This document shows positions 5,714 to 24,063 of a stretch of 64,000 nt of DNA, piece by piece (the first letter of the stretch is position 1; the number at the start of each line of letters is the position of its first letter). This DNA is from an uncultured Eubacteriales bacterium (GTDB lineage Bacteria > Bacillota_I > Bacilli_A > RF39 > UBA660), in contig ONQM01000003.1 in assembly GCA_900319955.1 (NCBI GenBank), positions 17,654 to 81,653 of the forward strand, written 5' to 3'. The notes beneath the pieces were generated by a model. The model saw nothing but the letters and a program-made list of their open reading frames with translations. It was not told the DNA's origin and did no database searches. The translations under genes were made by a program, and so were the position numbers.

Positions 5714-7250
5714 ATAGCTCTCCACTTTTTAGTGGGGTGCCTTTTTTTGGTCTTTTGTTGATATAAAAAGCAGAAAGTTAGATTTTTAGCACTATAAAAA
5801 CTTTCTGCTATTTTTAGTACCTAAAATACTAAATTTTAAGAATATTTATTTTTTCTTGTATTTTTGATTTTAGTATTTTTTAAATTTACTGGAGCATAAC
5901 TTTTGTGTAAAATTGCAAGTGTCCTTAATCTAAAAAATCCAAATTTTTTTATATCCATATGCTCTATCAATTATCTTATCAATTGTATTGTTATTTGCTT
6001 CAGTAAATCCATTTGAATATCTTTCATCTTTAAATGAATTAACAATAGGCTCTAACCAGTTTTTGATTATTTTAGCAGCGTCTATCATCTCAGGTATTTC
6101 TGATTTATTAAATTTCTTTATCCATTTTTCTAACTCTTCTTTTGTATTTTCATATTTAACATTTATTGTTATCCTTAAAAATTCTTCTTTTAATGAATAT
6201 GCTTTTGCAAGGTCTGTATCTATCTTTAACACTTCATTAAGTCTATCTATTTTAAATACCTCAACAAAAGTATTATTCCTTTTTATTTTCATAACACCAT
6301 ACCAAAAATCATTAAACTTGTCTTTAGTTTTTTTATTGGTTATTCCTTTATTATATTTTTCTTCTTTATCCTTTCTTTTTCTTATCTCACTTTTTGTTTC
6401 ACTAAATGATTTTAATAACAATATGCAGTTTATTCTATTCTTTAGAAGTCTATATCCATAACTAGTTTTATCACTTTCATATTTATGGACTAATCTTAAT
6501 CTGACATTGTCTAGACCTTTTGTTACATAACTAGTATAATGAAATGGGTCGGCGACAAATATAGCGTTTGGAAAACATATTTTCACGACCTCGTAATATG
6601 GTTTGTATAAATCATATATTACAACTTTAACAGACTTTCTATTTTTTACTTTTTTAAAGTATTTAATTAGAAAGTCTTTTTTTTGTTGGTAATATATCAA
6701 GTGTTATTCTTCTTAATGGATCATTTAATATAAATGAATACAATCCTGCATCTGTTTTAGTCGATGTTTCATCAAATGATATAACTTCTGGAAGTATTTC
6801 TACATTACTTGGATAATTTTTCATTGCCTCTTTTAATGTTTCTCTTACAAAGTTTGATGAAACATTATTTTCTTTTGCAATATTATCAATAGTTTTATCT
6901 CTATCAAATAAATCTTTTAGAACATTCTGTCTTGTTTTATTTGATATTTTTTCACCTTTACCAAGTGTTTCTATTTTTCTGTAAAAGATTTATCACAATC
7001 TTTCTTTCTATTAGATTTTATATAAACATATTTAATCTCTTTTCCTCCTTCCTTATCACTTTCAACATTAATTATGTCTAGTGAATCGTCAAGTCCTAAT
7101 ACTTTTCTTATTTCTTCTCTTTTTATTCTCTTTAACTCCTTCTGTAACACTCTATGTTACAGTAGAATTATTGCATATTATTGTCTCTATTGGAACCCCA
7201 CTAAACCTCGGAGATTTACAAAAAAAACCCCACCAAAAGGTGGAGACCCC
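5714..7250 (-). mobile_element. Degraded ISL3-family insertion sequence, about 1.5 kb, with imperfect terminal inverted repeats and a pseudogenised transposase
   Basis: The left end at 5716-5750 reads AGCTCTCCACTTTTTAGTGGGGTGCCTTTTTTTGG. The reverse complement of the right end at 7222-7250 reads GGGGTCTCCACCTTTTGGTGGGGTTTTTTTTG, matching about 27 of 31 positions. Between them lies an ISL3-type transposase remnant. Confidence 0.6.
5930..7150 (-). pseudogene. ISL3-family transposase (DDE_Tnp_ISL3) pseudogene, disrupted by at least two in-frame stops and one frameshift
   Basis: The 256-aa ORF 5930..6700 carries the ISL3 catalytic-domain signatures VADPFHYTSYVTKGLDNVRLRL and SNGFTEANNNTIDKIIDRAYGY. 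Upstream on the minus strand, other frames encode the ISL3 N-terminal region (IRKVLGLDDSLDIINVESDKEGGKEIKYVYIKSNRKKDCDKSFTEK*, then IETLGKGEKYQIKQDRMF*, then ...LPEVISFDETSTKTDAGLYSFILNDPLRRITLDILPTKKRLSN*). The junction with the 256-aa ORF (MIYYQQKKDFLIKYFKK) falls on an 8-T homopolymer at 6676-6683, so there is a -1/+1 frameshift there. No in-frame Met start is visible at the 5' end. Confidence 0.7.
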
Positions 7251-7338
7251 AATTTCTTACATTCTCATCTATAAAATCAATTAAATTGTAGCAATGCTAA
7301 TTTTTATTCACCAACACTACTTGAAATTTAATCTGATT

Positions 7339-8127
7339 TTAAACAGCAGTAGAAAACATACCCATCATCGCAATTAAAAGTATAAGCATAACACCAATAC
7401 CAGTACAAATAAGCATTGTCATTGTTTGATTTTCCATATGTTCTAGACGCTCTTTATATTTTACTTCACGAGCCTTATTTTGAAGATTAGAAACACTTCT
7501 TGAAAACATCATTAATCTTTCTTGTTTTCTCTCTTGAGAACCAATTCCAAGTCTATATAAAAGTCTCATCATACGCATTGAATCTCTAACAGGATAATCA
7601 TTAGCAAACTCCATATAAGGATCAACTGTAGAATCACCTGCATTAATCTCTTCAACCATCTTCTTTAAACCAGGCTTAAAAACATCAGGAGCATCATCAA
7701 TTGAACGTGCAAGAGCAACTGGAACAGTATAATGCTGTATTAATATTTCTAGTCCTTTTAAGTAATAAGGAAGTAGTAAATCTATCTCATGTAAATGTTT
7801 CTTATAGAAATTTTTTAAAGACCAATAACTAGACTTAAATGTTAAGAAACCAACAACAACTGATATAACAATATTTAAAAGACTTACAGTATTCATAAAA
7901 AGTATTAAAAATACTATTCCAACTATTAAACCATTTCTAAGTCTTTGTTCAAAAAGTACATCAGGATCTACTTTATCTCCATACTTCATACGAACTAAAA
8001 AGTCATAATCACTTTCTCTTAAAAGATTAAAAAGTTTAGAATTATCTTTAGCAAACTTTTTTGTATCAATAGTTTTATTGTATACAAGAACAAATAAAAT
8101 AATTCCACCAAATATAAGGACTTCCAT
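7339..8127 (-). CDS. TadC-like inner-membrane platform protein (type II secretion system F-domain family)
   Basis: 262 aa with the TM/cytoplasmic domain/TM/TM layout typical of TadB/TadC/GspF-type platform proteins. It sits immediately downstream of a second paralogue and of a CpaF ATPase gene, and its start at 8127 overlaps the upstream stop, suggesting translational coupling. Confidence 0.55.
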   Translation of the reverse strand: MEVLIFGGIILFVLVYNKTIDTKKFAKDNSKLFNLLRESDYDFLVRMKYGDKVDPDVLFEQRLRNGLIVGIVFLILFMNTVSLLNIVISVVVGFLTFKSSYWSLKNFYKKHLHEIDLLLPYYLKGLEILIQHYTVPVALARSIDDAPDVFKPGLKKMVEEINAGDSTVDPYMEFANDYPVRDSMRMMRLLYRLGIGSQERKQERLMMFSRSVSNLQNKAREVKYKERLEHMENQTMTMLICTGIGVMLILLIAMMGMFSTAV

Positions 8128-9020
8128 TACTCAGCACCTACATTCTCGTTATAATATTTTTCTCCTTTAATGAGAAAATAACTATTAATCAAAATTATAC
8201 CATGAAGTAATAATTTAACATACCATCTATCAAGTAAAAGGATATAACTTTCCTTACCTAGTAAATACTGAACTAAAAGGACAAGTACATATAGCATAAT
8301 ACCAAATTGTAAGAACCTCTTATGGAAGTTAGCTCTATCAATTCTATCTCTGTAAACACCTTCAACAAGAGTATCGATATCAAGTTGCATCTGCTCTAGT
8401 GAGTCTGCTGAGTTTCTCGCACCTTCCTTAGTTATCTGTAAGAATAATTGATGCATATTTTTAACTATATAAAACGGATATAAATTATTAAAATATTTAA
8501 TTGATTCATCAATGGAACCATTTTTATAAGCAAGCTCTATCATTCTATCAACATCACCAGCAACTGGATCTTCAAGAAGTCCAGATTCTCTAACACCTTC
8601 CAAACTTTTAACAAAAGATTGTCGAGTTGCAAATTCCATAATAGTGTTAGATGTATATACCTGTATTTGTTCAAAGATAAACTCACTATATATTCTTTTA
8701 CTTCTCAAATAAGCAAGATAAGGAACAAGTAAAATACCAAGAAAAACATATAAAGCTGCAGTAAAGATGTTATAGAAATATAAGTATGCAATAAGTCCTG
8801 CAAAACCACCTATTAAAACACACTGTATAATATAATCTCTAGGCTTATATTCCTTACCCAACTGCTTTGTCTTCTCTCTTACTTTTTTATATGAATAAGG
8901 AGCAAACTTATCATAAATAGATGTTATTTGGTCATTAATAAATCTAGTCGCATTCTTACCACTATAACCTCGATACATCATTACAAATATAGCAATAACT
9001 AATAGTATAAATAATTCCAT
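8127..9020 (-). CDS. TadB-like inner-membrane platform protein (T2SS-F domain family)
   Basis: 297 aa with an N-terminal TM, a roughly 200-aa cytoplasmic domain and two C-terminal TM helices. It is a paralogue-like partner of the adjacent gene and sits directly downstream of the CpaF-type ATPase. Confidence 0.55.
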   Translation of the reverse strand: MELFILLVIAIFVMMYRGYSGKNATRFINDQITSIYDKFAPYSYKKVREKTKQLGKEYKPRDYIIQCVLIGGFAGLIAYLYFYNIFTAALYVFLGILLVPYLAYLRSKRIYSEFIFEQIQVYTSNTIMEFATRQSFVKSLEGVRESGLLEDPVAGDVDRMIELAYKNGSIDESIKYFNNLYPFYIVKNMHQLFLQITKEGARNSADSLEQMQLDIDTLVEGVYRDRIDRANFHKRFLQFGIMLYVLVLLVQYLLGKESYILLLDRWYVKLLLHGIILINSYFLIKGEKYYNENVGAE

Positions 9021-9025
9021 ATATC

Positions 9026-10435
9026 TTAACCTCCGTTACTCATATTTTGCATGACGTTACTTGCATCTATTTGTGGCATTACTGGAACTTGTATATTAGA
9101 AGTTTGTGCATTACTAGGAATATTTACTTGTGCAGCACTTTGAGCATCTACATTAACACTTGAATTTAATGATGAATTTTCACTTGCTAAATTAATGTTA
9201 GTTGCAGGAATATTTTCAGTACCTGCTACAGCTTTCTCTTCCATTGTACCACCATTAAGTGCATTATTTAAAGCATTACTTTTTTCTTCACTTGGACCTG
9301 TTTCAGATTCTGCTTTCTGTGAAGCTTCAGCAAATCTCTTTGATTCATTCTCTTCTATTACCTTCTCAATATCAACATCAGGTAAATGAGCAAGAATATC
9401 ATCAATATTAAGATTTTGATTTTCTAGATATTCAACCAAATGTTTAGAAGGACGAGACATAATAGGATCCATATCATAAAGTTTTCTATAAAGAGTATGA
9501 CATACAGGTTTGTTATCTTCATCAACATAAAATTCAACAACCTCATCTACTTCACGATGGAACTTACCATACTTTTTAGAATAATAAGCTTTAATATGAA
9601 CACCAATTTGTACATAACGATAAATTGTATTTAAAAACTGATCAACATCAATATCTGTCTCAAGTAATGAATAAAGACGATAAGGAATTGCACTAGCTTT
9701 ATCAGCATGGATTGTTGATAAAATATTGTGTCCTGATGAAATAGAGTTACGTACAGCAGTAACTGCCTCAGCTGAACGAACCTCAGATAGTAAAATCCAT
9801 TTTGGATTCTGTCTCATACAGGTAACTAATACATCAGAGTATGATGCAACGTTATTAGTCTTCATTGCAACAATATCTCTAGTTGGAAAAATCTTATCAA
9901 GATGAAGTTCTAGAGTATCCTCAATTGTTATTATCTTTTCAGTCTCTTTAATATGACTTGCAAGATACTTAACAAACTCAGTTTTACCAGAACCAGTTTC
10001 ACCTGAAACAATTATGTTACAGTGTCCTTCAACACATTTCATTAATAAATCATGAATATCAGCAGTAAAATAATCTTCTGCAAGTAATTTTTCTTTCTTT
10101 AACCTTATCTTAGCAGGTGTTTTACGAATAACACATGCAATACCATTAGTAGCAATAGAAGGATGTACAAAGTTAAGACGTAACTCACTACTTTCTGCAT
10201 CTAGAAAAGGCTTAGCATTATTAAAGGTTGTACCCATAACATTAGAGCACTGAAAAGCAAGCTTTTCCATAAACTCTGGAGTACAACCTGGAACTTCTAC
10301 ACGAATGGAACCTTGAGATAAAGAACGAATCCAGATTTGTCCGCCATTACAATACGAGATATCGGTTATATCATCATTATCAAGTAGTGGTCTTAAAGGG
10401 CCAAAATCTAACTTATCAAATATATTTTCATTCAT
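9026..10435 (-). CDS. CpaF/TadA-family (VirB11-superfamily) secretion ATPase with a roughly 100-aa Ser/Asn/Ala/Gln-rich C-terminal tail
   Basis: Walker A motif GETGSGKT, Asp box ITIEDTLEL, Walker B-like LSEVRSAEA and His box STIHA, in the order characteristic of CpaF/TadA/VirB11 hexameric ATPases. The C-terminal low-complexity extension is ...ASQKAESETGPSEEKSNALNNALNGG...SSLNSSVNVDAQSAAQVNIPSNAQTSNIQ. Confidence 0.85.
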   Translation of the reverse strand: MNENIFDKLDFGPLRPLLDNDDITDISYCNGGQIWIRSLSQGSIRVEVPGCTPEFMEKLAFQCSNVMGTTFNNAKPFLDAESSELRLNFVHPSIATNGIACVIRKTPAKIRLKKEKLLAEDYFTADIHDLLMKCVEGHCNIIVSGETGSGKTEFVKYLASHIKETEKIITIEDTLELHLDKIFPTRDIVAMKTNNVASYSDVLVTCMRQNPKWILLSEVRSAEAVTAVRNSISSGHNILSTIHADKASAIPYRLYSLLETDIDVDQFLNTIYRYVQIGVHIKAYYSKKYGKFHREVDEVVEFYVDEDNKPVCHTLYRKLYDMDPIMSRPSKHLVEYLENQNLNIDDILAHLPDVDIEKVIEENESKRFAEASQKAESETGPSEEKSNALNNALNGGTMEEKAVAGTENIPATNINLASENSSLNSSVNVDAQSAAQVNIPSNAQTSNIQVPVMPQIDASNVMQNMSNGG

Positions 10436-10473
10436 TATCTCACTTCCACTCTTTTATTCTTTTATTCTTAATC

Positions 10474-11280
10474 TTATTGCATTGAATCTGTCCAATAAGT
10501 GACATTATTGATAAAGTCTTTAATATCTTTAGATGAAAGCTTTAAATCACCTGGATTAGACTTCTTACTTTCTGCAGTAGGAACTGGAGAAAGTTCAGTA
10601 CTATAGTTTCTTAAGTAATCTGCTTTCTTAAGTAAGATATAATATTCTTCTGGTACAGCAAATATTAACTGAGATGGTACTGCATTTTCATTTGTATTAG
10701 AGAATACATTCTTACCACTACTATCTCTAACAGCAAGTACTTTAACATTCTCAAGTAACTTACCAACCATAACTTTACCATTATTAGGATCATTTTCATC
10801 AGTAGATCCATAAGTAGCCTTAAAGTAAAGATCAATATAATTACCAGGGTATATTGAATTACTATAAGTAGTTTCCATATTAACACTCATATAATATAGA
10901 ACATATCCTTTTGGATAATCAAGAATAATACTATCAGGTAATTGATCTTTTTCAACAACACATCTAGTATAGAAAAGACTTCCAGAAGGAATCAAACAAT
11001 CTGCACCAGAGTATTTATCAATAACACTCTGTTTAGATCTATAAATATCACCTTTTATCATAGAAGGAGGAACTTGAGCTTCCCCAACCATGTCTTCTGT
11101 TATTTGAGTACTTGGATTAATTTCCTGAAGAGCATAAGGAACACTAATTGGATTAGTAGCTTGTTTAACTCTCCAGTTATAACCTATATATAATACAAGA
11201 ATAGCAAGTATTACACCAAGAACTGTAACAGTATTCTTATTAGTTAAAAATTTCTTTAAGCCAACCGTTATATTATTCAT
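10474..11280 (-). CDS. CpaB-like Flp/Tad assembly protein (N-terminal TM anchor plus SAF-like domain)
   Basis: 268 aa. TM helix VTVLGVILAILVLYIGY followed by a SAF-like segment (...PYALQEINPSTQITEDMV...), resembling the CpaB/RcpC N-terminus. It is positioned directly upstream of the CpaF-type ATPase, as in tad loci. Confidence 0.5.
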   Translation of the reverse strand: MNNITVGLKKFLTNKNTVTVLGVILAILVLYIGYNWRVKQATNPISVPYALQEINPSTQITEDMVGEAQVPPSMIKGDIYRSKQSVIDKYSGADCLIPSGSLFYTRCVVEKDQLPDSIILDYPKGYVLYYMSVNMETTYSNSIYPGNYIDLYFKATYGSTDENDPNNGKVMVGKLLENVKVLAVRDSSGKNVFSNTNENAVPSQLIFAVPEEYYILLKKADYLRNYSTELSPVPTAESKKSNPGDLKLSSKDIKDFINNVTYWTDSMQ

Positions 11281-11290
11281 TTTATTCCTC

Positions 11291-11794
11291 CTATTTACTT
11301 GGTAAATTATTTAAACCATTATAACTTGTAATCTTTAAATCTTTAATATAATCCTTATTTTTAGTTGTAACAGCTAAATTGTCTTTATTCTTAGTTTCAA
11401 TAATCATATCTGCAGTAGTTGTAATATCAACTTTATTTTCCCCACCTAATGCTTTTACAACAACAGTATTCTTAGGAGAAATTACTCTTATACTAACCTT
11501 AGGAGGTGTTTCATTAATATCATAAACTTTAATGTCATAATCACGAGTTCCCTCAACATTATTAGCAAAACGTTTTACAAAACTTTCCATAAACTTCTCT
11601 TTATCCATTCTGAGTAAGCCACTCTCTCTAAAGAAAGTATTATCAACTGCATCATTCATAGCAGCTTCTGTTGTCTCTTTTAATAGATAATAATCAAGTT
11701 CAGCACCAGTTTGTTGTCCACTAATAACACTAATTGAATAGAAACCTAATATTGCCATTAATATAATTCCAATTGTTAAAAATGCCTTATTCAC
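11291..11794 (-). CDS. Hypothetical small membrane-anchored protein (candidate pseudopilin-like or accessory component)
   Basis: 167 aa. N-terminal hydrophobic segment AFLTIGIILMAILGFYSISVISGQ, then a soluble domain. No TadE/Flp consensus was recognised. Confidence 0.5.
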   Translation of the reverse strand: MNKAFLTIGIILMAILGFYSISVISGQQTGAELDYYLLKETTEAAMNDAVDNTFFRESGLLRMDKEKFMESFVKRFANNVEGTRDYDIKVYDINETPPKVSIRVISPKNTVVVKALGGENKVDITTTADMIIETKNKDNLAVTTKNKDYIKDLKITSYNGLNNLPSK

Positions 11795-11811
11795 TATTAA
11801 TCACACTCCTA

Positions 11812-14800
11812 TTAACTAGCACTCTTTATAAAATTATTAAGAGTAGTCTTAGTATCCTCATCTATATCATAACTTGTTAAAGGATCACATGCTGTTCCAT
11901 TAAGAATATTATTACATTTTAATGCTTCTTCACTAGGCTTTCTAAGTAAAGAACCATAGCCTTCTGTAGTATTCTTACTACCCTCTGGTGAAGTTCTTAA
12001 AAATTTACTTACATAATACTTAATAGTTGGAATATCACTGCTTGGAGCATCATAGCCACCTTTTTCAGATGTATCTAATTTTGTAGCATCAGTATAATAT
12101 CCTGCATTCTTATATGCATCCCAATAATCTTCATTATTAATTGTCTTATAAGTACCATTTTTAAAATAAGTATAATCTTTATCACCATTTGTAATTTTAC
12201 GAATATTTTCTATATTCTTTTTATTTAAATAAATTTCATAATCAAGTTCATTATCATTGTTATAAATACTATCACCTTGAGATTTAATCTTAGCTGCTAA
12301 AAGTGTTGGTGTAATAGGATAATTAGCTATAGATAAATTAGTAGCATTAACACTCCAGTTAAAACCAGGTTGTCTGGAAGCAGAAGCACTTGTTTTTGCA
12401 TCTGCAACCTTCTTTACATTACCTGCTTGATACTCTACAGTACTTGTTGAAACTTTAGTAGATTTAGAAACCTTATTAGATGTTGGTTTAGTTCCACTTG
12501 ATGTAAACATATTTTGACTGTCATATGATCTAGCAACATAGTTACCCATTCTAGTTGTACATGTTTTATCAGTCTTATTATCACATGATGAATCAGGAAT
12601 TGATGAACATCCAGTACCAGTACAAGATACAGTCTTACAATTTGGATCCTTTGTTGTATCACAACTTGAAGTTTTTGTAGGATTTGGACAATTCTTAGTA
12701 TTAATTGGTTCAGGATCATCATCAAGTGCATAATAACATCCAGTCTTAAACTTCCAATCAAACATACCAAAGCTTTCTACCTTACTTATAATGTTATAAA
12801 CATCTGGTGTTGATTTACTAACTTTATCAAGTGTACAACCATTCTTAGCTCTTAGATATTCATCGAAGAATTTAACATTAACTTTCTTAGCAGTTGATGG
12901 TGTACAATACTTACCACTAACTTTCTTATACCATTGAGATTCTGCTGACATATCATCATAAACTACATAACCATGTTTATTTTCAATCCAAGCACCAGGG
13001 AATGTAATTATACCATGATATTGTGTAATTAATGCTTTAGTATTATTTTTCCAAGTACAATCAATCTTATTTCCATTTGCATCAGTATAAGAATCAGTCT
13101 TACCATCACAACCATCTACAACCTTACCAGCACACTGTCCAGCATTTAATTCAACAACTGTTGGGAATGAATGTGAAGCATTATTTAATTCTTTCTTCTT
13201 CTGCTCTTCCCCTTTTGCACTTGGGAACTTTCTACATAATTCTTGATCATAATTGCTTCCCTCACAAGATTGCTTATCAGTACTTGTATTATCAGTATCA
13301 TCATTTGCAGTCATAGTATAAGTGATACTATTGTCTTTACAATCATTTGCAGTATTTATACAATCAGCAATTTTACCAGTAAATGAAGATAAATCTTTTT
13401 CAAATTGTTTTTCAATCTCACCGGCAGTATCATAACAAACTGAAGTTGATGAAGATTTAGACCATTTGCAATTCCAAGTACAATTTTCATTTCTTCTAAA
13501 TCCAACACCATCATTATGTTCATCTTTAGTAGTATTTGGATAATATGAAGCACCTTTTTCATACATACCTAAGAAGCATTTATTCCAACCAAGTTTCTTA
13601 CATTCACTATAATTTGTTTCAGGAGAACATGTTGTGCTACCAACTAGCCAACTATTCTTATAATGATAATCTGTACAAACAGTTAAAGCTGCCATAGATT
13701 TATTCTTAAAATAATACTTAGCATATTTAGTCCAATAGCAATCAGAACTTGTTGCACTATCAGAGCCTTGAACATGTGAGTTAACATAATCATAAACTGC
13801 ATCAATATATCCATCAGGAACTTTTCCAGGAGTCGTACCACTTGCTAAAGTACCAGGGAAGTTTTTACATATTTCAGATTCTGTAAATTTAGAACCCTTA
13901 ACAGTATCGGTTTTCTTTAACTTAATTACATCACTAGATGTTGATTCTTTACCTTCTGTTGTTAATACATTATTATTTGAATTTTGTGCTAAATTATTTG
14001 ATACTTTTGATGTACTTGATACTTTTGTACCATATGCTTTATTAAAACATTTATTTATACATTTATCAGAATATTTTCCACCATCACAATCCAAAACGCA
14101 TAAATCAAATTCATCATCTGGTCCAGCTGATGCTGTATGTAAATCAGGTTTATTAGAATTTCCACCACCACATATAGGTGTATCTTGACAAGAAGCATTT
14201 TCATATTTTCTAAAATCAGGAATCTTATCAAAATCAGGTTTTACCACACATGATGTAGTACTCTTAATTTCTACTTTATATGTAAAACAATTACCAGGAG
14301 TTACAGCTTGAGGTGCATCAAATGCTATTGCAAGTTGTTCACGACAAGTATAACTGCAAACATTTTGAGCAACAGTTTTCTTAGAAGTTAATCCACTTTG
14401 ATTGAATAAAAGCATATCAGCTTTTACATCTTCAGCCTTATCATAATATAAATATTTATAAGTTTTTTCATTATCAAGTCTATTATCACAAGTTAACATA
14501 TCTTTTTTATTAGATTCTGCATTTTCATAACCAGTTTTATTAGTAGCTTGGTCTTTTAATTTGTCTTTACTGTCACGACCCTTTTTACTTAAGTCAGGAT
14601 CATCGACCTTTATCCATTTTTTATCTGATCCTTGAGTTAAATCAGGTAGTTTTGGATTATCAGGATCAATTCCTAAATCTCTCATTTTAGCTCTTTCAGA
14701 AATATAGTCTTCAAAAGTTTTTTCAAATGATGCCATATCTTCCTTTATCTTAGTAAGAATTTCATCTGAAATATTATAATCAACATAAGCATCTTTTGCA

Positions 14801-15969
14801 TCGTATCCTACAACCTTATCTCCACTAACAGAAACAGCTAAATTACCATTAGAATATCGAGGGAAACAAGGACCCATTGTTTTATTAACAAGAGCATCAG
14901 TATACTCATTCCATTCAGAATCAGATGCATGCTTATAGTATGATTTTACTGCCCATTCACATGCAGAGCCAGAACTAAAATCAGCAGATGTAGTTCTGTT
15001 TGTATTAGATGCAGCTATATTATTCAATATATTTGCTTCATCCTGTAAATCGCCACCATATGTTGTGTAATATGATTTTATTGTCATCTTCTTTTTGTTT
15101 TTCTTAGCATAAACTATGAATATTGCATATTCTCCACTATTTTCCACTTTAAAATCATATGTTGTATGCTTTGATGGTGTATAAGTTATAACTTTATCAT
15201 GTGGACCATTTGCATGATTTGCATACCACCAGTTTGTATATGCTTCTGCGCAAGTCTTATTGTTTACTCCTTTTTTGTTGCACGCATCTTTTTTCTTATA
15301 ATGTTTTACTTTTGCATCATATTCATCTTTATCAAAATCAACTGCTGCAATTTTTATTTTTTTATCTGTTGCATCCCCATTAGATATAAAAGTAACTGTT
15401 GAAGGGTCTGATATATGAAATTGGACTTGAAATCCAAATAATGATACATCAACTGGTTCTGGGTCAGTTAATGAACCTACATCAACTGAATCAGGATCAT
15501 CAACATCCTCATCTACATCAGGTTCTTCAGCTGTAGTAGTTGTAGTACTTTCATTTGAAGTTGTGCTTGAACTATTACTTGATGGTGTATATGAATTATT
15601 GCTAGTAGAACTGCTGCTTGAACTTGAGTTTGAATTAGAACTGTTAGAGCTTGCTTTAGCAACACATTCAGCATGTTTAGAATCAATTACATGTCTAGCA
15701 AAACCATCATTACATTTACAATTTGTACCTTTACTAGAAGCCCAAGAAGCATTTGCTTCGCAAGAACAAGTACTTCTACTAACTTTCTTACAATCACCAT
15801 TTTTCTTTTTGGCACCTGTACAATGACTTAATGTACCGCATCCATCAGCTGCATATACATTACTTTTGTTATTAAAATTTACATCGATTGTAAATCCAAA
15901 TAACATTACAATGGCTAGTAAAAATATTCCAACCCTCTTTTTATAACTATTTTTAGACATCTTCGCCAT
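11812..15969 (-). CDS. Giant cysteine-rich secreted protein (1385 aa) with a Ser/Thr-rich linker, an acidic region and many CxxC/C-rich modules
   Basis: Signal peptide MAKMSKNSYKKRVGIFLLAIVMLFGFTIDVNFNNKSNVYA-ADGCG. Poly-Ser/Thr linker SSNSSNSNSSSSSSSTSNNSYTPSSNSSSTTSNESTTTTTAEEPDVDEDVDDPD. Dozens of Cys are spread through the protein (e.g. TSSCDTTKDPNCKTVSCTGTGCSSIPDSSCDNKTDKTCT). There is no LPXTG-type C-terminus. The start overlaps the upstream sortase gene by 17 nt. Confidence 0.8.
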   Translation of the reverse strand: MAKMSKNSYKKRVGIFLLAIVMLFGFTIDVNFNNKSNVYAADGCGTLSHCTGAKKKNGDCKKVSRSTCSCEANASWASSKGTNCKCNDGFARHVIDSKHAECVAKASSNSSNSNSSSSSSSTSNNSYTPSSNSSSTTSNESTTTTTAEEPDVDEDVDDPDSVDVGSLTDPEPVDVSLFGFQVQFHISDPSTVTFISNGDATDKKIKIAAVDFDKDEYDAKVKHYKKKDACNKKGVNNKTCAEAYTNWWYANHANGPHDKVITYTPSKHTTYDFKVENSGEYAIFIVYAKKNKKKMTIKSYYTTYGGDLQDEANILNNIAASNTNRTTSADFSSGSACEWAVKSYYKHASDSEWNEYTDALVNKTMGPCFPRYSNGNLAVSVSGDKVVGYDAKDAYVDYNISDEILTKIKEDMASFEKTFEDYISERAKMRDLGIDPDNPKLPDLTQGSDKKWIKVDDPDLSKKGRDSKDKLKDQATNKTGYENAESNKKDMLTCDNRLDNEKTYKYLYYDKAEDVKADMLLFNQSGLTSKKTVAQNVCSYTCREQLAIAFDAPQAVTPGNCFTYKVEIKSTTSCVVKPDFDKIPDFRKYENASCQDTPICGGGNSNKPDLHTASAGPDDEFDLCVLDCDGGKYSDKCINKCFNKAYGTKVSSTSKVSNNLAQNSNNNVLTTEGKESTSSDVIKLKKTDTVKGSKFTESEICKNFPGTLASGTTPGKVPDGYIDAVYDYVNSHVQGSDSATSSDCYWTKYAKYYFKNKSMAALTVCTDYHYKNSWLVGSTTCSPETNYSECKKLGWNKCFLGMYEKGASYYPNTTKDEHNDGVGFRRNENCTWNCKWSKSSSTSVCYDTAGEIEKQFEKDLSSFTGKIADCINTANDCKDNSITYTMTANDDTDNTSTDKQSCEGSNYDQELCRKFPSAKGEEQKKKELNNASHSFPTVVELNAGQCAGKVVDGCDGKTDSYTDANGNKIDCTWKNNTKALITQYHGIITFPGAWIENKHGYVVYDDMSAESQWYKKVSGKYCTPSTAKKVNVKFFDEYLRAKNGCTLDKVSKSTPDVYNIISKVESFGMFDWKFKTGCYYALDDDPEPINTKNCPNPTKTSSCDTTKDPNCKTVSCTGTGCSSIPDSSCDNKTDKTCTTRMGNYVARSYDSQNMFTSSGTKPTSNKVSKSTKVSTSTVEYQAGNVKKVADAKTSASASRQPGFNWSVNATNLSIANYPITPTLLAAKIKSQGDSIYNNDNELDYEIYLNKKNIENIRKITNGDKDYTYFKNGTYKTINNEDYWDAYKNAGYYTDATKLDTSEKGGYDAPSSDIPTIKYYVSKFLRTSPEGSKNTTEGYGSLLRKPSEEALKCNNILNGTACDPLTSYDIDEDTKTTLNNFIKSAS

Positions 15970-16756
15970 CTCCTTCTAATATTTTTTTGATTTTTTTATA
16001 GTCCTTCTTTTCATGCATATCATAATTATACCCTTTATTACTATTTTTTACAAGTTTTCCATCAACTTTTAAATAATAATGATAAGGACCTAATAATCTC
16101 GTACACGTATATAAAGAAATTAACTTATCTTCTTTATTTACATCAATATCATATTTATAAATACTTTCTTTTAATGAGTCTTTTATAAATTTTTTCTTAA
16201 TTGTTTTTGTAATGCTATTAGGAAAATAATAAACTTCATTATCATTTATTATTGAAACACCATATATTTGATATAAATAATTAACATTGTTAAATGTAAA
16301 TTGTATATACTTATTTTTATCAGCAAAATCACTATAAACAAAAGCCATTAATGGTTCAAATCTTTGCAATTTCTTATCATTTACCTTTGGATGTGGTCCA
16401 ACATTAATATAGTTGTGACCAAAAATTGGAATAAAATCTGAAAGTTTTTTTTCAGGTTTATTAATCCAAGCATAATTATCAAGTGATGGATATGTTTCAG
16501 ATGAAACTGGCATATCAATGTTAGTACCTTGTACCTTAATCCATCCAATTACCTTATCTTTTTTACTTTTCTTTTTCAACTTCTCAACATTTTTTGTTCT
16601 ATCTTCTACCTTATATATAGGGAAAAATTTATTACTGATTTTCTCTCTATTTATAACAAGAATTATAGCAAACAAAATGAGAAGTAATAAAAGAATTATA
16701 ACATGTTTGTTTATCATCTTTGATGCTTTTTTTTCTTTTCTTATATTTCTTTTCAT
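15953..16756 (-). CDS. Class B sortase-like transpeptidase (SrtB family)
   Basis: N-terminal TM anchor. KVIGWIKVQGTNIDMPV matches the SrtB N-terminal signature (compare S. aureus SrtB IVGWIKLSGTSLNYPV and C. difficile SrtB IGWLQVQDTNINYPV). The His motif is IFGHNY and the Cys motif is KLISLYTCT (TLxTC-type). The position aligned to the catalytic Arg is uncertain and may be His. Confidence 0.7.
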   Translation of the reverse strand: MKRNIRKEKKASKMINKHVIILLLLLILFAIILVINREKISNKFFPIYKVEDRTKNVEKLKKKSKKDKVIGWIKVQGTNIDMPVSSETYPSLDNYAWINKPEKKLSDFIPIFGHNYINVGPHPKVNDKKLQRFEPLMAFVYSDFADKNKYIQFTFNNVNYLYQIYGVSIINDNEVYYFPNSITKTIKKKFIKDSLKESIYKYDIDVNKEDKLISLYTCTRLLGPYHYYLKVDGKLVKNSNKGYNYDMHEKKDYKKIKKILEGDGEDV

Positions 16757-16775
16757 ATTACTCCTCTATCCTATA

Positions 16776-18527
16776 CTAATAACTTATTGTATATGGGTCT
16801 TGCTTAGTTCCAGAACCACTAACAACTACTGCATCATTTCTTAAATAACCTGCAATCTTTGTTGAAGATGCATAAGCAAAATTTGCAATTGGAAAATAAA
16901 TTGTACCATTTCCACTACCATAATATTGCTTATATTTTTTACTATACTCTATATACCAAGTTTGACCATTAATATTTGAGTAAAAATCAAATAAAGATGG
17001 CAACGATATTTTAATATTATATGTTTTTGATTCATGTTTTCCATTGTATGTTGGATATGAACTATATATATTTGCAGAAACTTTATGTTTTTTAAATATA
17101 TTAGTACTAATTTGTCTAGAAATATTATTTTCTACTGAATAACCAATATTATTATTTTTATTTGGGTTGTATTTACTATTATTAACTATGTTATCATCAA
17201 ACTCATAAGAATAATTTGATATAACTTTAACATTTTTTGAATCATTAGAAGAAACTCTAAATAATTGTCCTCTATATGAAATATACTCTCCTACTCTTAG
17301 TTTACTAACTTTTGTTCCACCTTTTAATTCCTTGAAGTTATCTATTACATATGGATTCTCATAAGATCCAGTTCCTTTTTTAATTAAAGTACTCTTTTTA
17401 ATAACAAAAACTGGCCTAACACTAAATATATAGTTCTTATTATAGTCTAAATATTTACTAGACTGACCATTAAATGAATATCTAGTTGTCCATGCCTCTT
17501 TACTATTTTTACTATTATACGTCCAACTAATAGTATCAGGATAAAGAAAACTTCCCCCCTCCTTTGTTAAGCTACTATTATACTCATTTATTGACAAAAG
17601 TCCAGAATTTCCAATATTTTTCTTTGAATTACATGTTGTTATTTTGTCTTTATCTTTAGATGAAACGGTATCAGAACAGAAATTATAGTTTGTAACAACA
17701 TACTTCTTACTATCATTAGTTAAAGTGTCATAAAAATCATTCAAGTAATCTTTTATTGAATTAAAATCAATATGACCTACATCTTCATTTGCAACTATCT
17801 TTGTATTACCATCACTATCAAGTCCTACTATTCTATAAAGTTGTCCACTAAACATTATGTAATTATCTCCATCACCAACATAAACATTACTCTTACCAGT
17901 AGCTTTCTCAACTGTCTTAGAAAGATTTTGTGTAACCTTAACAGTTCTAGTTACTTCAGTTTTATTCTCTAAAGTATCAACAGCACTATAAGTAATAGTA
18001 TATACTCCATTCTTACTTGTATCAACATCACTTGATACAGCAACATCTTTTGCATTTATTTTACCATCATTATTATCTATAACACTCTTAACACCAGGAT
18101 CTTTAAATTTAGAATATCTTTCTACATTAATAGTATCATTACCATTTAATGTAATAACAGGTCCAGTATGATCTATATTAGAAGAAAATATACCACATTT
18201 TAAATAAGTATAATATAAATACTGTCCTTCTTTTCTTTTTACTTTAACAAAACTATGTCTAGTATCACAAGTATCATGATTATAAGCAGTTCTTAAATCA
18301 GGAATATACTTTTTATCTAAAAGTTCAACACCATTAATAGTTCTAATTTCTCCTTCTTCTGGTAAAAGATTTTTATTTATTTCAAAATATCTTTTAGCAC
18401 CTTTAAGTAAAGTACTTTCATTTTCATTAAACTTAATTAATGGAAATATAAATAATAAATAAATAATTAGTAAAACTCCCGCAATTACAAGTATTTTAGT
18501 AACTGACTTTTTAGTATCATTTTTCAT
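16776..18527 (-). CDS. N-terminally anchored surface protein with a bacterial Ig-like (DUF5011-like) domain and GxGxxxxPY(V/T)I motifs
   Basis: 583 aa. Type-II-style N-terminal TM (ILVIAGVLLIIYLLFIFPLI). HTGPVITLNGNDTINVERYSKFKDPGVKSVIDNNDGKI matches the DUF5011 Ig-like pattern. GTGSYENPYVIDNF and GSGTKQDPYTISY occur in the C-terminal half. No C-terminal sorting signal. Confidence 0.65.
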   Translation of the reverse strand: MKNDTKKSVTKILVIAGVLLIIYLLFIFPLIKFNENESTLLKGAKRYFEINKNLLPEEGEIRTINGVELLDKKYIPDLRTAYNHDTCDTRHSFVKVKRKEGQYLYYTYLKCGIFSSNIDHTGPVITLNGNDTINVERYSKFKDPGVKSVIDNNDGKINAKDVAVSSDVDTSKNGVYTITYSAVDTLENKTEVTRTVKVTQNLSKTVEKATGKSNVYVGDGDNYIMFSGQLYRIVGLDSDGNTKIVANEDVGHIDFNSIKDYLNDFYDTLTNDSKKYVVTNYNFCSDTVSSKDKDKITTCNSKKNIGNSGLLSINEYNSSLTKEGGSFLYPDTISWTYNSKNSKEAWTTRYSFNGQSSKYLDYNKNYIFSVRPVFVIKKSTLIKKGTGSYENPYVIDNFKELKGGTKVSKLRVGEYISYRGQLFRVSSNDSKNVKVISNYSYEFDDNIVNNSKYNPNKNNNIGYSVENNISRQISTNIFKKHKVSANIYSSYPTYNGKHESKTYNIKISLPSLFDFYSNINGQTWYIEYSKKYKQYYGSGNGTIYFPIANFAYASSTKIAGYLRNDAVVVSGSGTKQDPYTISY

Positions 18528-18545
18528 AATCTCTAACCTTCCTTT

Positions 18546-20102
18546 TTATTTTATATCTAATATGTACCTTTTATTTCTTATTGTACATATTATATCTAAA
18601 TCATTACTTGATGCCTCTTTATTTGTTAATTTAATAAATACTTCTTTACCATCATTATGAGTTGAAACTGCATTTTTTACATCATCATATTTATATTTTT
18701 TACTCTTTCCTACTCTGTATTTAATTTTACCATACTCATTTAAAAAGTCAATAAAATCTTCCCCTTCAAAGTCACTACCAGCAAAAGTAATTTTGAGTAT
18801 TTTGCCTTTATTATTTCTTACACTATCTGTATTTACCTTACAGTCATCAGCAGCTTCACAGTAGTATCTTCTATAAGTAAAATTATCACCAATCTCTGCA
18901 GTTAATGGAGTTAACTCTTTATAACTTCCATCCATATATTCAAATTTAATTTTTTTATTTAAATTATAAGTACCAATATCTTTGATATTGCTTATATCAG
19001 TAATATTTAATTTTATTTTTCTTAATATATTTAGATTATCTAGCTCCTGATAATATAAAACAAACTTATTATTCTTAAGCTTCTCATCTTCCTTAAATAT
19101 TAAATAAACTTTCTTGCCTTGTCCACTATATAAGTTGATGTTATCATCAACCCCACTACCAATATCTTTAAATGAATCATTATAAAATGTATTATAAATT
19201 TTTATAGATGATTTATTAACTAAATGATATCTATCAAAATTAACTGTAACTCTTCTATTAGATCTATTAATAACATTAACACCAATTATTACAAACTTAT
19301 TTCCCTTTTCTATAACATTACCTGCATAATCTTTATCAGTAACATAAGCATCAGTAATAGTAATATTATAAATACCAGCATTAAAGCTTTTACCTTGCTT
19401 ATAACTTCTATGTGTTATAAAGAAATTAAATATATTAAATATAAGTATTATTGAAAGTCCAGTAAGAGCTATATTACAAACAAGCTTATGTTCAAAGTAA
19501 AAATACTTAATATTTCTTAAAACTCTATTAAATACCCTTCTAATACTTCTTTTATCAAAGTCAAAAGATACTTCAAACTCTGCTCTATCATCTTCAGAAA
19601 GCTCTAAGAATTCTTTATCTTTTTCGAATCCAAACTTCTTAATATCTGCTCCAAGTATTCTAGCAAGTAAAAGAAACATAATAGGATACATTAGGAAATG
19701 ACTTATATTAATAATATCTCTATAAGGAAGAATACCTGAAAGTTCTGAAAGAGGAGTATAATCACTAAAGTAATTTGAAGCTCCATTAACGCCAACAAGA
19801 ACTAAAACAAATATAGCAAAATAAACAAGATAAATCTTCCAAGGTTTTTTCTTTCTAACAAGAAGTACCATTAAAGCAAGACATGCAAGAATAACAAATA
19901 TAACTGCTAAATAGAAAAGTACTCCAACATGACTTGAAAAGGACTCTACACTAGCATCATAAGACTCAAATCTAATAAACTCCTTAACAAAATTTAATAT
20001 ATTAAGAAGTTTAAAATAAATGAAAACTACACATGCTAAAATAACTATATGTATTTTCTTAAAGTTTTTAATTAAAAAGGCATAAGGTTTTCTAAATATC
20101 AT
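18546..20102 (-). CDS. Polytopic membrane protein (4-5 N-terminal TM helices) with a large C-terminal extracytoplasmic domain; first gene of the operon
   Basis: 518-aa ORF, hydrophobic N-terminal third and a soluble C-terminal domain. It is preceded by a 190-bp intergenic region. Confidence 0.6.
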   Translation of the reverse strand: MIFRKPYAFLIKNFKKIHIVILACVVFIYFKLLNILNFVKEFIRFESYDASVESFSSHVGVLFYLAVIFVILACLALMVLLVRKKKPWKIYLVYFAIFVLVLVGVNGASNYFSDYTPLSELSGILPYRDIINISHFLMYPIMFLLLARILGADIKKFGFEKDKEFLELSEDDRAEFEVSFDFDKRSIRRVFNRVLRNIKYFYFEHKLVCNIALTGLSIILIFNIFNFFITHRSYKQGKSFNAGIYNITITDAYVTDKDYAGNVIEKGNKFVIIGVNVINRSNRRVTVNFDRYHLVNKSSIKIYNTFYNDSFKDIGSGVDDNINLYSGQGKKVYLIFKEDEKLKNNKFVLYYQELDNLNILRKIKLNITDISNIKDIGTYNLNKKIKFEYMDGSYKELTPLTAEIGDNFTYRRYYCEAADDCKVNTDSVRNNKGKILKITFAGSDFEGEDFIDFLNEYGKIKYRVGKSKKYKYDDVKNAVSTHNDGKEVFIKLTNKEASSNDLDIICTIRNKRYILDIK

Positions 20103-20244
20103 AATTACTATTCCCCTTTACTCTAAGATAATTATAAACTTTTAAAGCAAATTTGACAATAAGAAAGTAATAGGTTATATCATTAAGCAGAAAGAGGTGT
20201 CCCGCATCAAACATTTTTTACTGGTGGGAGGCTCCCCTTTTTCT

Positions 20245-20274
20245 CTTGATTAAATAATTATATATATGTTATAA
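20245..20274 (+). promoter_or_regulatory. Sigma-A-like promoter for the thioredoxin-like lipoprotein gene
   Basis: TTGATT (20245-20250), a 17-18-nt spacer, then TATAAT-like ttataat (20268-20274). GAGG lies 8 nt upstream of the ATG at 20296. Confidence 0.4.
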
Positions 20275-20295
20275 TTTTTTCTGGAATGAGGTTAG

Positions 20296-20703
20296 ATGAT
20301 GAAAAAAGTAGTAAAAGTATTATTAATAGTTATTTCTTTAATGTTACTAACTGGTTGTAAAAATAATATGGAAAGAATTACATATAGTGATTTAGAAGAT
20401 AAAATAAAAGATAAAGATACATTTATAATGGAAGTATCACAAGATGGTTGTAGTCATTGTGAAGAATATAAACCAATTATAGATGAAGTATTAAACGATA
20501 ATAATTTAACAGCATATAATTTAAATATAACTTATCTAAGTGAACAAGATTATAATAAATTTGATAAAAAATATACATTTGAAGGAACACCAACAACTAT
20601 GTTCTTTAAAGATGGTAAAGAAGTTTTATCAAGTAGACTTGTAGGTACAGTTAGTAAAACAAAATTAAAGAAAGAATTAAAAAGATTAGGTTACATCAAA
20701 TAA
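20296..20703 (+). CDS. Secreted thioredoxin-fold lipoprotein (CxxC thiol-disulfide oxidoreductase-like)
   Basis: Lipobox LLTGC. CxxC motif CSHC. cis-Pro-type motif EGTPTTMFF. 135 aa. Confidence 0.75.
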   Translation: MMKKVVKVLLIVISLMLLTGCKNNMERITYSDLEDKIKDKDTFIMEVSQDGCSHCEEYKPIIDEVLNDNNLTAYNLNITYLSEQDYNKFDKKYTFEGTPTTMFFKDGKEVLSSRLVGTVSKTKLKKELKRLGYIK

Positions 20704-20722
20704 CCTAATCTTTTATTATTTA

Positions 20723-21175
20723 TTACTCTAAAAACATCTTTCTAGTTACAAAATTAAATACCATAACAATTACTGTTGAGATAACTTTAGATATCATTGC
20801 ATTCATAGATAATATATTAATAAATAAATGTAGTAAAATTTCTGTGATAATAAGACCAACAATACTAAATATCATAAATTCTATAAACATTTTCTTCCTG
20901 CTCTTATTCTTATTAACATCAAATACCCATCTTACACTAGCACTATAATTATAAATTACAGAAACAGAAAAAGATAAAATATTTGCAATTAATGGATCAA
21001 CATGTAAAAACTTATAAACTATATAATAAACTATCCAGTCAATAAGTGTTGCAATACCACCTACTATTCCAAACTTAAATATTTGAATTAATAAGTTAGT
21101 AGTTTTATCACTTGTTTTTATATGTAACTTCTTTAAAACTTTTCTTACAAATCTACTTGTCTTGTCATCTTTCAT
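20723..21175 (-). CDS. gtrA: GtrA-family membrane protein (polysaccharide biosynthesis/translocation)
   Basis: 150 aa, 4 TM helices. FGIVGGIATLIDWIVYYIVYKFL is typical of GtrA-like proteins. Confidence 0.75.
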   Translation of the reverse strand: MKDDKTSRFVRKVLKKLHIKTSDKTTNLLIQIFKFGIVGGIATLIDWIVYYIVYKFLHVDPLIANILSFSVSVIYNYSASVRWVFDVNKNKSRKKMFIEFMIFSIVGLIITEILLHLFINILSMNAMISKVISTVIVMVFNFVTRKMFLE

Positions 21176-21197
21176 AATCTTTTCCTCTAAAAAGATT

Positions 21198-22973: not shown

Positions 22974-22989
22974 ATTTTTCCTCCACAAT

Positions 22990-23130
22990 AAAAATATATA
23001 TGATTCATCTTTTGTTATAATGTTAATTTTATACTTTGTAATGAATCTAACGATTTCCCGTAATAGCATCCGCCGAATAATTCGATAACTATTAACCTCG
23101 TTAACTTTAGAAGTCTGGCGCTTATAATAA
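22990..23130 (-). ncRNA. glmS ribozyme: glmS ribozyme (GlcN6P-dependent self-cleaving riboswitch) in the glmS 5' UTR
   Basis: The minus-strand RNA reads ...A^GCGCCAGACUUCUAAAGUUAACGAGGUUAAUAGUUAUCGAAUUAUUCGGCGGAUGCUAUUACGGGAAAUCG... This matches the conserved core AGCGCCAGAACU / GACGAGG / GUUAUCGAAUUUUCGGCGGAUGC, and the cleavage-site A-G maps to 23122/23121. Confidence 0.8.
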
Positions 23131-23217
23131 ACTTACAACCTTTCTCATTTATTATATTAAAATAATTATAATATTAAAAAAAAAGAAAGTCAAAATACTT
23201 TTGAAAAAAAATATATT

Positions 23218-24051
23218 CTACCTCTTTACATAAATTTTATTTTTCTTTTTACATTTTTCTTTAAATCTATTTTCTAAATACTTTAAAGCAGTATTAAACT
23301 TATACTCATACTTTTCTCTTTCATCAAGTGTTTCAATTTCATAATCTAAACTTATTAAATCATTAACATTTACCGAATTATCTAAGTCATAATCAAAAAT
23401 ATAATCATCATCATCTTCAAATTCATCAAAATCCATATCAGCATCAGGATCATCTACATCGTATAAGTCTTTCAAAAAGACACAATCATCAGTAAAGCTT
23501 GATGATATAACATTAGTTTCCATATTATCGATATTTAAGTAATAATAAATTGTATCTTTATATCCTGTATCTTTATCTTTTAAATATCTTTCACAATATA
23601 CATTATGTATATTAGAAAGACCTATTTCATAATCATCTTCATCATCTATTCTGTCAGCTTCCTCATAAACTCTTAACTTAGAATTATAAATAATATCTTT
23701 ACCACATTTATTATTTAAAACATAAACATCTTTATTTAAATTAAGATCTGTTGGATATTTAACTCCCTCCATATATATTGCAGGACTTAATTTAAATGTA
23801 AAACTATTAATAACATTTACTTTATCTTTAAACTCTATATGATCAAAAAAGCTAAGCTTGCTTTCACCATCATAACAAATAATTATAAATTCACCAATAC
23901 CAGCTTTATGTACTAAATAAATATCATTAGTTTTAAATTTATAAAATAAATTACCATTTACTAAATATTTATCTTTACCTATATCTTTTATTTTATAGTT
24001 ACTTTCTTCTTCTATAATTCTTTTAACTTTCATAACAAACTCCTTTAGCAT
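23218..24051 (-). CDS. Hypothetical protein with a strongly acidic C-terminal region
   Basis: 277 aa. C-terminal DVDDPDADMDFDEFEDDDDYIFDYDLD. No recognised family. Confidence 0.55.
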   Translation of the reverse strand: MLKEFVMKVKRIIEEESNYKIKDIGKDKYLVNGNLFYKFKTNDIYLVHKAGIGEFIIICYDGESKLSFFDHIEFKDKVNVINSFTFKLSPAIYMEGVKYPTDLNLNKDVYVLNNKCGKDIIYNSKLRVYEEADRIDDEDDYEIGLSNIHNVYCERYLKDKDTGYKDTIYYYLNIDNMETNVISSSFTDDCVFLKDLYDVDDPDADMDFDEFEDDDDYIFDYDLDNSVNVNDLISLDYEIETLDEREKYEYKFNTALKYLENRFKEKCKKKNKIYVKR

Positions 24052-24063
24052 AGTATTATAACA

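Follow-up and report, generated by a model that had tools for sequence, protein, structure and literature searches.

A Cys-His-Arg triad and substrates that carry a C-terminal sorting signal are the defining features of sortases; the sortase-like enzyme described here lacks the full triad, and no such substrate is visible beside it. The enzyme, of 267 amino acids (aa), is encoded on the minus strand at positions 15953..16756 of a 64,000-nucleotide (nt) stretch of contig ONQM01000003.1 (assembly GCA_900319955.1) from an uncultured Eubacteriales bacterium of the UBA660 lineage; this whole 64-kb stretch is called the window below. It lies in a nine-gene locus resembling type IV filament systems of the Tad kind, between the genes for a surface protein with an Ig-like domain (W2) and a giant Cys-rich secreted protein (W4). 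Our confidence is high for what the gene is, a distant relative of the class B sortases (SrtB), and modest for what it does. On the latter we favor, with a probability of about 0.5, an active Cys/His transpeptidase or peptidase that would recognize a non-LPXTG signal and act on W4, W2 or both.

The identity of the enzyme was examined by matches of its open reading frame (ORF) to Pfam, NCBIfam and PDB sequences and profiles, and by a structural model. An earlier note on this DNA had described SrtB-type motifs and an SrtB-type fold, and both hold. The N-terminal signature (VIGWIKVQGTNIDMPV, residues 69-84), the His motif (IFGHN, 111-115) and the Cys motif (LYTC, 215-218) are all present. The class B model TIGR03064 matches with an E-value of 1e-13 and 51.2 bits, short of its curated cut-off of 153.75, and the Pfam Sortase model PF04203 gives 16.4 bits, below its gathering score of 26.6. 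The top PDB sequence match is S. aureus SrtB (6.6e-8), and a profile built from 25 homologs reaches C. difficile SrtB at 1.3e-21. At the level of these scores the resemblance to SrtB is specific but weak. The model has the sortase β-barrel fold with class B architecture, and two pilus-assembly class B sortases (PDB: 4y4q and 3psq) are among its four best structural matches. The N-terminus is Lys-rich and is followed by a transmembrane helix at about residues 17-35 (hydrophobic segment HVIILLLLLILFAIILVI; helix 17-35 in the model), so that the positive-inside rule would place the catalytic domain outside the cytoplasm. The C-terminus is a family-specific extension modeled as strands at 241-249 and a helix at 253-261. 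Chance can be set aside as the origin of this ORF because its homologs are numerous: a first search returned 86 relatives, 144 representatives were found at E<1e-30 among 1.8 billion searched, and relatives are encoded in at least 211 stretches from species-representative genomes. Judged by these matches and by the model, the gene is a genuine but highly divergent sortase relative with the class B fold, and it lacks three defining marks of SrtB, namely the catalytic Arg, scores above the curated thresholds and a cognate substrate within the window.

The active site is the most informative part of the sequence. Residue conservation was counted over 81 homologs that share only 33-65% identity. 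His114 (FGHN motif, codon at 16415..16417, minus strand) and Cys218 align with the catalytic His and Cys of SrtB from C. difficile and S. aureus; the His is present in 80 of 80 informative homologs. In the TCTR motif (residues 217-220, 16097..16108, minus strand), Thr217, Cys218 and Thr219 are each found in 81/81 sequences; at position 220, 79 sequences have Arg and two have Lys. The canonical Arg of strand β8 is what is missing. Both the family-profile alignment, based on 25 homologs, with C. difficile SrtB (Arg217) and a pairwise HMMER alignment with S. aureus SrtB (Arg233) bring that residue onto Tyr228 (codon at 16073..16075, minus strand), a register with which the model agrees (β7, 212-219; β8, 227-235). 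Only one of the 81 homologs has Arg at column 228, and one has it at column 227; the absence of the β8 Arg is, on this alignment, a trait of the family and no artefact. Nor does position 230, which lies on the same face of β8 as the canonical Arg column, supply a conserved substitute, as it is Lys or Arg in 39/81 homologs and Val or Ile in 26/81. The earlier note was therefore right that the conserved Arg is non-canonical and that the enzyme may be divergent; its placement of the Arg column on His226 is corrected here to Tyr228, two residues later, and its other option, a shifted alignment, is contradicted by the profile alignment, the 81 homologs and the strands of the model.

Two apparent ways of recovering the Arg were considered and rejected. 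A shifted register that lays the family 'VDAR' (231-234) onto the 'DDAR' of C. difficile fails, as the counterpart of the [GA][RK] pair (233-234) is G222-R223 in C. difficile and A238-K239 in S. aureus; also counted against it are Lys at position 234 in 31/81 homologs and the start of β8 at 227 in the model. The homologs P0051 and P0124 appear to retain an Arg ('DFRIVAK'), which the register check puts at column 230, not 228. A true canonical Arg does occur in the nearest outgroup, longer and apparently Clostridial sortases that combine TCTR with 'QRFVVMA[RK]', one of which stands alone among housekeeping genes. Since TCTR and the canonical Arg coexist in this outgroup, TCTR is older than the Arg loss, and the Arg was lost in the short, locus-associated family to which the present enzyme belongs.

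The published work on sortase mechanism is helpful for judging what such a loss may mean. In substrate-bound structures of S. pyogenes SrtA, the conserved Arg touches the P4 and P3 carbonyls, and the Thr just before the Cys makes up the oxyanion hole with backbone amides (PMC9520033). Thr217 matches this oxyanion-hole Thr. A laboratory-evolved S. aureus SrtA with an Arg-to-Ser change is an efficient transpeptidase on LMVGG (PMC9520033), and for this reason the loss of Arg is compatible with altered specificity. An invariant Thr-Cys pair and His in the absence of Arg is the pattern expected of an active enzyme with changed substrate recognition. Participation of Arg220 in the active site is plausible, because a docking study finds the SrtB pocket lined by residues that directly follow the catalytic Cys (PMC12603079) and a review counts the Asp following the Cys in the B. 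anthracis SrtB triad (PMC11231552).

The second line of evidence comes from the genes on either side. W2 (583 aa; 16776..18527, minus strand) has an N-terminal transmembrane anchor and a Bact_surface_Ig-like domain and terminates in SGxGTxxxPYx[IV]x[KY], and W4 (1385 aa from its first ATG; 11812..15969, minus strand) starts with a signal peptide and has, in its conserved C-terminal domain, a G[CV]NN motif at 0-35 aa from the terminus. W4 has no Pfam or PDB match; a PDB profile search gave only a chance-level E of 0.62, and a profile search for distant relatives returned at least 5 close matches. Among 83 cases in related loci (designated by L numbers), W2 precedes the sortase gene in 79 and W4 follows it in 76, and in all 76 of the latter the W4 frame overlaps the 3′ end of the sortase gene. 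The junction in the window reads GAA GGA GAT GGC GAA GAT GTC TAA. The true start of W4 is probably the second ATG, at 15960, with an 8-nt overlap (ATGTCTAA) with the sortase stop, and the GGAG ribosome-binding site of W4 lies inside the sortase codons Glu-Gly-Asp (EGD). The acidic tail of the sortase (…LEGDGEDV; 15953-15975, minus strand) thus holds both the ribosome-binding site and the start codon of W4, and its conserved 'EGD' may partly reflect a nucleotide-level constraint from that site. By this arrangement the sortase is a fixed, translationally coupled component of the locus.

Duplications and strain variation also link the sortase with its neighbors. Parts of the segment from W1, the first gene of the locus, through W2, the sortase and W4 to the DUF5411 gene (W5) are tandemly duplicated in four related loci (L012, L021, L029, and L057), in which the ATPase, platform and pilin genes stay single; the extra unit in L029 has neither a sortase nor a DUF5411 gene. 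Two sortase copies on separate contigs are seen in some genomes (L019 and L023; L020 and L043). A comparison within the species is provided by the L087 contig, which is 99-100% identical to the window at the nt level over 17765-26464 and 7218-13215. Between these flanks lies a sharply bounded 4.4-kb intraspecies variable cassette (13216..17600) with only 43-80% nt identity to L087. Within it are the last ~275 aa of W2, the complete sortase and the first ~915 aa of W4, with aa identities to the L087 allele of 68%, 61% (64% over codon-aligned columns) and 55%, respectively; W1 and W5-W9 are 99-100% identical. Two alleles are found, one in the window and L086 and the other in L087 and L088. L089 was considered as a third allele and rejected, being a different species with 55-85% nt identity throughout. 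Synonymous divergence (dS) is 0.56-0.85 within the cassette and 0-0.014 in the flanks, and the ratio of nonsynonymous to synonymous divergence (dN/dS) is ~0.42-0.45 in all three cassette segments. As the sortase shares one cassette with segments of W2 and W4, it is inherited and diversifying together with the variable parts of its neighbors.

Where a recognition site might lie was sought in the same proteins. The W4 orthologs share a C-terminal domain ending in G[CV]NN, after which come 0 to ~40 unconserved residues; the W2 orthologs always finish with SGxGTxxxPYx[IV]x and one or two further residues; and the DUF5411 protein has a conserved NExPPKV motif. All three are candidate recognition sites, and none is accompanied by a hydrophobic retention segment. 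The tail of the pilin-like protein of related loci ('NISG', a short hydrophobic stretch and Lys/Arg) was also considered as a mini sorting signal and was rejected, as it is not conserved in the lineages nearest the window.

In the reading that we favor, the protein is a cysteine enzyme that is anchored in the membrane, lies outside the cytoplasm and has the class B sortase fold, and it is a dedicated accessory of a Tad-like locus in uncultured gut Bacilli. The nucleophile Cys218, the general base His114 and Thr217 are retained; the β8 Arg, which in LPXTG-type signals positions the P4/P3 backbone, is lost, and a near-invariant Arg stands two residues after the Cys. Most likely still active, the enzyme would recognize a signal other than LPXTG. 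Its probable target would be W4, encoded immediately downstream, and possibly also the Ig-like W2 upstream, and the target would be either cut or covalently joined to the filament, to the DUF5411 protein or to the cell envelope.

Several observations weigh against this reading. The G[CV]NN of W4 and the SGxGTxxxPYxI of W2 are ordinary-looking domain ends without a hydrophobic retention segment. The C-terminal third of W4, which holds G[CV]NN, is identical in both alleles and so gives no covariation signal. Membership of the cassette could be hitch-hiking, which is not separable from co-adaptation because the sortase sits between the variable parts of W2 and W4. Pilin genes are missing beside the locus in the window, and this copy may be incomplete. 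Finally, the R216A substitution abolishes the activity of wild-type S. pyogenes SrtA (PMC9520033).

Among the competing explanations, a purely hydrolytic maturation peptidase, which trims the W4 tail after G[CV]NN or releases W2 or W4 from the membrane, is one of the two that survive best, although we consider it unlikely. The variable tail, without conserved composition, is like a removable propeptide, and there is neither a hydrophobic retention signal nor an obvious acceptor for a transpeptidation. On the other hand, many orthologs have the motif right at their C-terminus (GVNNE*, GFNNN*), where cleavage would remove almost nothing, and we know of no sortase-fold enzyme that acts as a pure hydrolase in vivo. 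Just as doubtful is a more ambitious proposal, a hybrid of the two Gram-positive pilus paradigms in which a sortase with a re-tooled active site (no β8 Arg, Arg at Cys+2) couples W4, as a giant and allelically variable adhesin, covalently to the pilin-like DUF5411 protein or to the ATPase-driven Tad-like filament; the signal would then be non-LPXTG and without a hydrophobic tail, and the sortase-adhesin pair would be swapped between strains as one cassette.

A sortase fold that is catalytically dead and only scaffolds or binds W4 or W2 in the envelope is somewhat harder to accept. The β8 Arg of the Cys-His-Arg triad is indeed missing, the inactive Arg-to-Ala S. pyogenes SrtA cited above is in line with a dead enzyme (PMC9520033), and a dN/dS of ~0.42 is high for an enzyme. 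However, His114, Thr217 and Cys218 never vary, and Arg220 hardly does, in sequences at 33-65% identity, and a pure scaffold would need none of them; the evolved Arg-to-Ser SrtA, moreover, is active (PMC9520033). An active enzyme with a changed recognition signal remains our preference.

The search for classical substrates bears on a further alternative. All 106 window ORFs of at least 60 aa were scanned for the pattern xPx[TSA][GNSAD] followed by an uncharged stretch and a Lys/Arg tail, and no credible sorting signal was found among them, which upholds the remark in the earlier note that no substrate is visible; the ORF translations likewise agree with it that the 1385-aa and 583-aa proteins terminate in soluble sequence. 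The same scan of 82 related loci (~20 kb each, ~1.5 Mb in total) revealed no conserved sorting-signal substrate, the sole match being a protein of L016 (2-1327) with SPVTG, a transmembrane segment and a KTKKSKS tail, ~8 kb upstream of the sortase-like gene of that locus. A Gly-rich giant secreted protein (>1640 aa, repeated Gly_rich PF12810 modules), encoded at 1-4920 on the minus strand and running off position 1, had been put forward as the one candidate with an unseen C-terminus. It is unlikely to be a substrate: 0/120 of its homologs end in a sorting signal, its gene is not conserved beside the locus, and an insertion sequence (IS) remnant lies between it and the sortase locus in the window. 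Several of its homologs in metagenome-assembled genomes of Bacilli carry the prepilin N-terminal methylation domain (PF07963) and are thus modular type IV pilins.

An ordinary housekeeping class B sortase with canonical substrates elsewhere in the genome is, with these results, quite improbable. It can be argued for from the fact that only 64 kb of the genome are visible, from the SPVTG protein of L016 and from the C-terminus of the Gly-rich protein beyond position 1. Against it stand scores far under the SrtB cut-offs, the family-wide loss of the canonical Arg, the fixed position of the gene with the W4 overlap in 76/76 cases, its co-duplication with W2, W4 and W5, the shared allelic cassette, and a sorting-signal protein in only 1/82 loci (~1.5 Mb) and in none of the 120 Gly-rich homologs. 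The earlier note had held that an intact triad in a structure-based alignment, together with a canonical substrate encoded just outside the window, would make the enzyme an ordinary housekeeping SrtB; the profile- and model-based alignment restores no triad, and no canonical substrate was found in the window.

We now turn to the locus as a whole, which is read on the minus strand in the order W1, W2, sortase, W4, DUF5411, CpaB-like, ATPase, W8 and W9. W1 (18546..20102), the first gene of the conserved module, encodes a membrane protein of 518 aa whose match to DUF4352 is sub-threshold. Downstream of W4 follow the DUF5411 protein W5 (167 aa; 11291..11794; DUF5411 9.7e-45), with a pilin-like hydrophobic N-terminus, the CpaB/RcpC-like protein (268 aa; 10474..11280), the TadA/VirB11-class secretion ATPase (469 aa; 9026..10435), the helical membrane protein W8 in the TadB position (297 aa; 8127..9020; 78% mean column identity), and the very conserved membrane protein W9 in the TadC position (262 aa; 7339..8127), all on the minus strand. 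The order from W1 to W9 recurs in contigs labeled uncultured Bacilli, Tenericutes and Erysipelotrichaceae, and also in those of 'Mycoplasma sp. CAG:877', 'Clostridium sp. CAG:417' and Candidatus Faecimonas, and this order, like each of the nine genes, is found in 70-80 of the 82 related loci. Divergently oriented and adjoining the locus is a gene for a thioredoxin-like lipoprotein (20296..20703, plus strand; LTGC lipobox, CSHC motif, PedC-like in relatives), which is kept beside the locus in L086-L089 and could oxidize the many cysteines of W4.

Further genes follow downstream in related loci. The first encodes a ~52-aa pilin-like protein (L024 10207-10362; ~63 loci) that begins MKAATG/ELNLTVITLIAIAAV... 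and is almost invariant over its first 45 residues (MKAATGELNLTVITLIAIAAVIGFFW.MWPNIQ.SINSQW), with a variable C-terminal tail in which the NISG motif appears in some lineages only. It matches no Flp or pilin model; the hit to TIGR04205, an archaeal class III signal-peptide family, is non-significant (E 0.084). Two pseudopilin-like genes of ~150 aa (MRDAxGG...) and a ~330-aa gene in the TadZ position are also present. A conserved membrane protein of ~110 aa is encoded after the latter (L024 11912-12235, L010 13647-14000, L028 10726-11061) and has a sub-threshold T4SS_pilin match (PF18895, E about 1e-3).

How far this gene set justifies the name of a Tad-like type IV filament was judged component by component. 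The ATPase matches Pfam T2SSE at 1.1e-28 with 100 bits against a gathering score of 24.9, and the VirB11, TadA-family and FlaI models of NCBIfam all match below their equivalog cut-offs. The CpaB-like protein passes Pfam RcpC marginally (30.8 vs 28.8 bits), with TIGR03177 at 29.7 against 71. W8 and W9 are membrane proteins of the right position and size for TadB and TadC, and on these grounds a platform role may be proposed for them. W8 has no Pfam match at E up to 1 (a scan of all its orthologs gave only noise), W9 has none at E up to 0.01, PDB profile searches returned nothing for either, hhalign relates the two with only 12% probability, and the single-sequence model of W8 has a predicted local distance difference test (pLDDT) score of 51. 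The pilin-like genes of related loci match no Flp (G/XXXXEY) or TadE model, and the pilin and minor-pilin genes are pilin-like by architecture only. Neither the genes called in L001 and L003 nor those downstream in seven other loci showed a prepilin peptidase (TadV), no A24 model having been run on every ORF, and it could be encoded elsewhere. The label is well supported but not proven, since no component besides the ATPase and the CpaB-like protein reaches a curated threshold.

A last alternative, as improbable as the housekeeping sortase, is that the sortase acts on the filament itself, processing pilins or minor pilins or anchoring the filament to peptidoglycan in place of a prepilin peptidase. 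It draws on the position of the gene within a filament-like locus, on the failure to see a prepilin peptidase in the called or conserved gene sets of the examined loci, and on 4y4q and 3psq among the four best structural matches. Against it stands that the leaders of type IV prepilins are cleaved at the cytoplasmic face while the catalytic domain of the sortase is placed outside the membrane, that the pilin tails are unconserved (NISG in some lineages only), that the sortase is duplicated together with W2, W4 and W5 but in no case with pilins, and that in the lineage of the window the sortase is intact although no pilin genes adjoin it.

In the window, the site that holds the pilin, minor-pilin and 330-aa genes in relatives is occupied by the remains of a transposase, now three ORF fragments (59, 53 and 256 aa; 5930..7150, minus strand), and the genes that relatives carry there are not found anywhere in the 64 kb. 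The contigs of the close relatives L086, L087 and L088 break off at most ~320 nt from where W9 ends, as contigs would at a repeat. The nine remaining genes of the locus are intact, and the filament genes of this lineage may lie elsewhere in its genome, or the system may be incomplete. The surroundings are chromosomal (GlmS, HtpG, DnaE, ComEA/ComEC, MurC, YceG, Tex and GerA); a mobile-element origin is rejected by these housekeeping genes and by the lack of any match, by DNA or protein, in plasmid and phage collections. A GerA-family spore germination protein is encoded at 25025-26656 (plus strand) and ComEC/ComEA at 44023-46732 (minus strand). Because of these genes, and with MurC and YceG also encoded, the host is probably a spore-forming Firmicute with DNA-uptake genes and not a wall-less mollicute. 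Two large ORFs of the window, of 668 aa (58005-60011, minus strand) and 395 aa (60114-61301, minus strand), have no Pfam match.

A comparison with known systems helps to place the enzyme. With the class B sortases of S. aureus, B. anthracis, C. difficile and C. perfringens (MEROPS C60B; TIGR03064) it shares the N-terminal membrane anchor, the GWIxVxGTNIxYPV-type, GHN..N His and TLxTC-type Cys motifs, and a pair of a small and a basic residue near the end of β8. It differs from them in having no catalytic Arg on β8 and a nearly invariant Arg at Cys+2 (TCTR), in an extra C-terminal extension of ~30 residues, in a TIGR03064 score of one third of the cut-off, in the absence of an NPxTN or (S/P)PxTG substrate nearby (window and 82-locus scan), and in its setting, a filament locus and not an iron-uptake or surface-protein operon. 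The pilus-assembling class B sortases, S. pyogenes Spy0129 (PDB: 3psq) and the S. pneumoniae type II pilus sortase (PDB: 4y4q), polymerize pilins that bear LPXTG-like signals; the filament genes here, in contrast, are of the ATPase-driven type IV/Tad kind, and no neighbor carries a sorting signal. The Arg absent here is also kept in those enzymes, as Arg229 in Spy0129 (PMC11231552).

The filament side offers likenesses of a similar kind. As in Tad/Flp (type IVc) pili, the locus has a TadA/CpaF-class ATPase, a CpaB/RcpC-like protein and two polytopic membrane proteins after the ATPase, and related loci have the ~52-aa pilin-like gene and the two ~150-aa pseudopilin-like genes; unlike in those systems, the pilin leader in related loci is MKAATG/ELN and not Flp G/XXXXEY, no T2SSF, Flp or TadE model matches, and no prepilin peptidase is seen in the locus. 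The archaeosortase D/PIP-CTERM systems, which are associated with class III signal-peptide (pilin-like) proteins (TIGR04205 description), are a conceptual parallel, in that a sorting transpeptidase is encoded beside type IV pilin-like proteins. Archaeosortases are polytopic membrane proteins of an unrelated enzyme fold, and the TIGR04205 match of the pilin is below any threshold, which makes this an analogy and not a homology. An operon of DUF5411, CpaF and PilC genes in gut Clostridia has been predicted to be secretion-related, with no mention of a sortase (PMC9523054). The present locus likewise has a DUF5411 protein and a CpaF-type ATPase, whereas its hosts are uncultured Bacilli and not Roseburia, Ruminococcus or Eubacterium. 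A literature search for a sortase linked to a Tad or type IV filament operon found nothing relevant.

The enzyme thus represents a natural family, present in hundreds of species of uncultured gut Bacilli, a poorly known group, that has kept the Cys, the His and the oxyanion-hole Thr and dropped the Arg, with no classical substrate in sight. Such a family bears on the question of whether the Arg of sortases serves catalysis or substrate positioning. It would widen the range of signals that sortases recognize and would be of interest for protein-ligation tools. A sortase and a giant surface protein carried together in a strain-variable cassette of a filament-like locus point to an undescribed way to build or decorate surface filaments.

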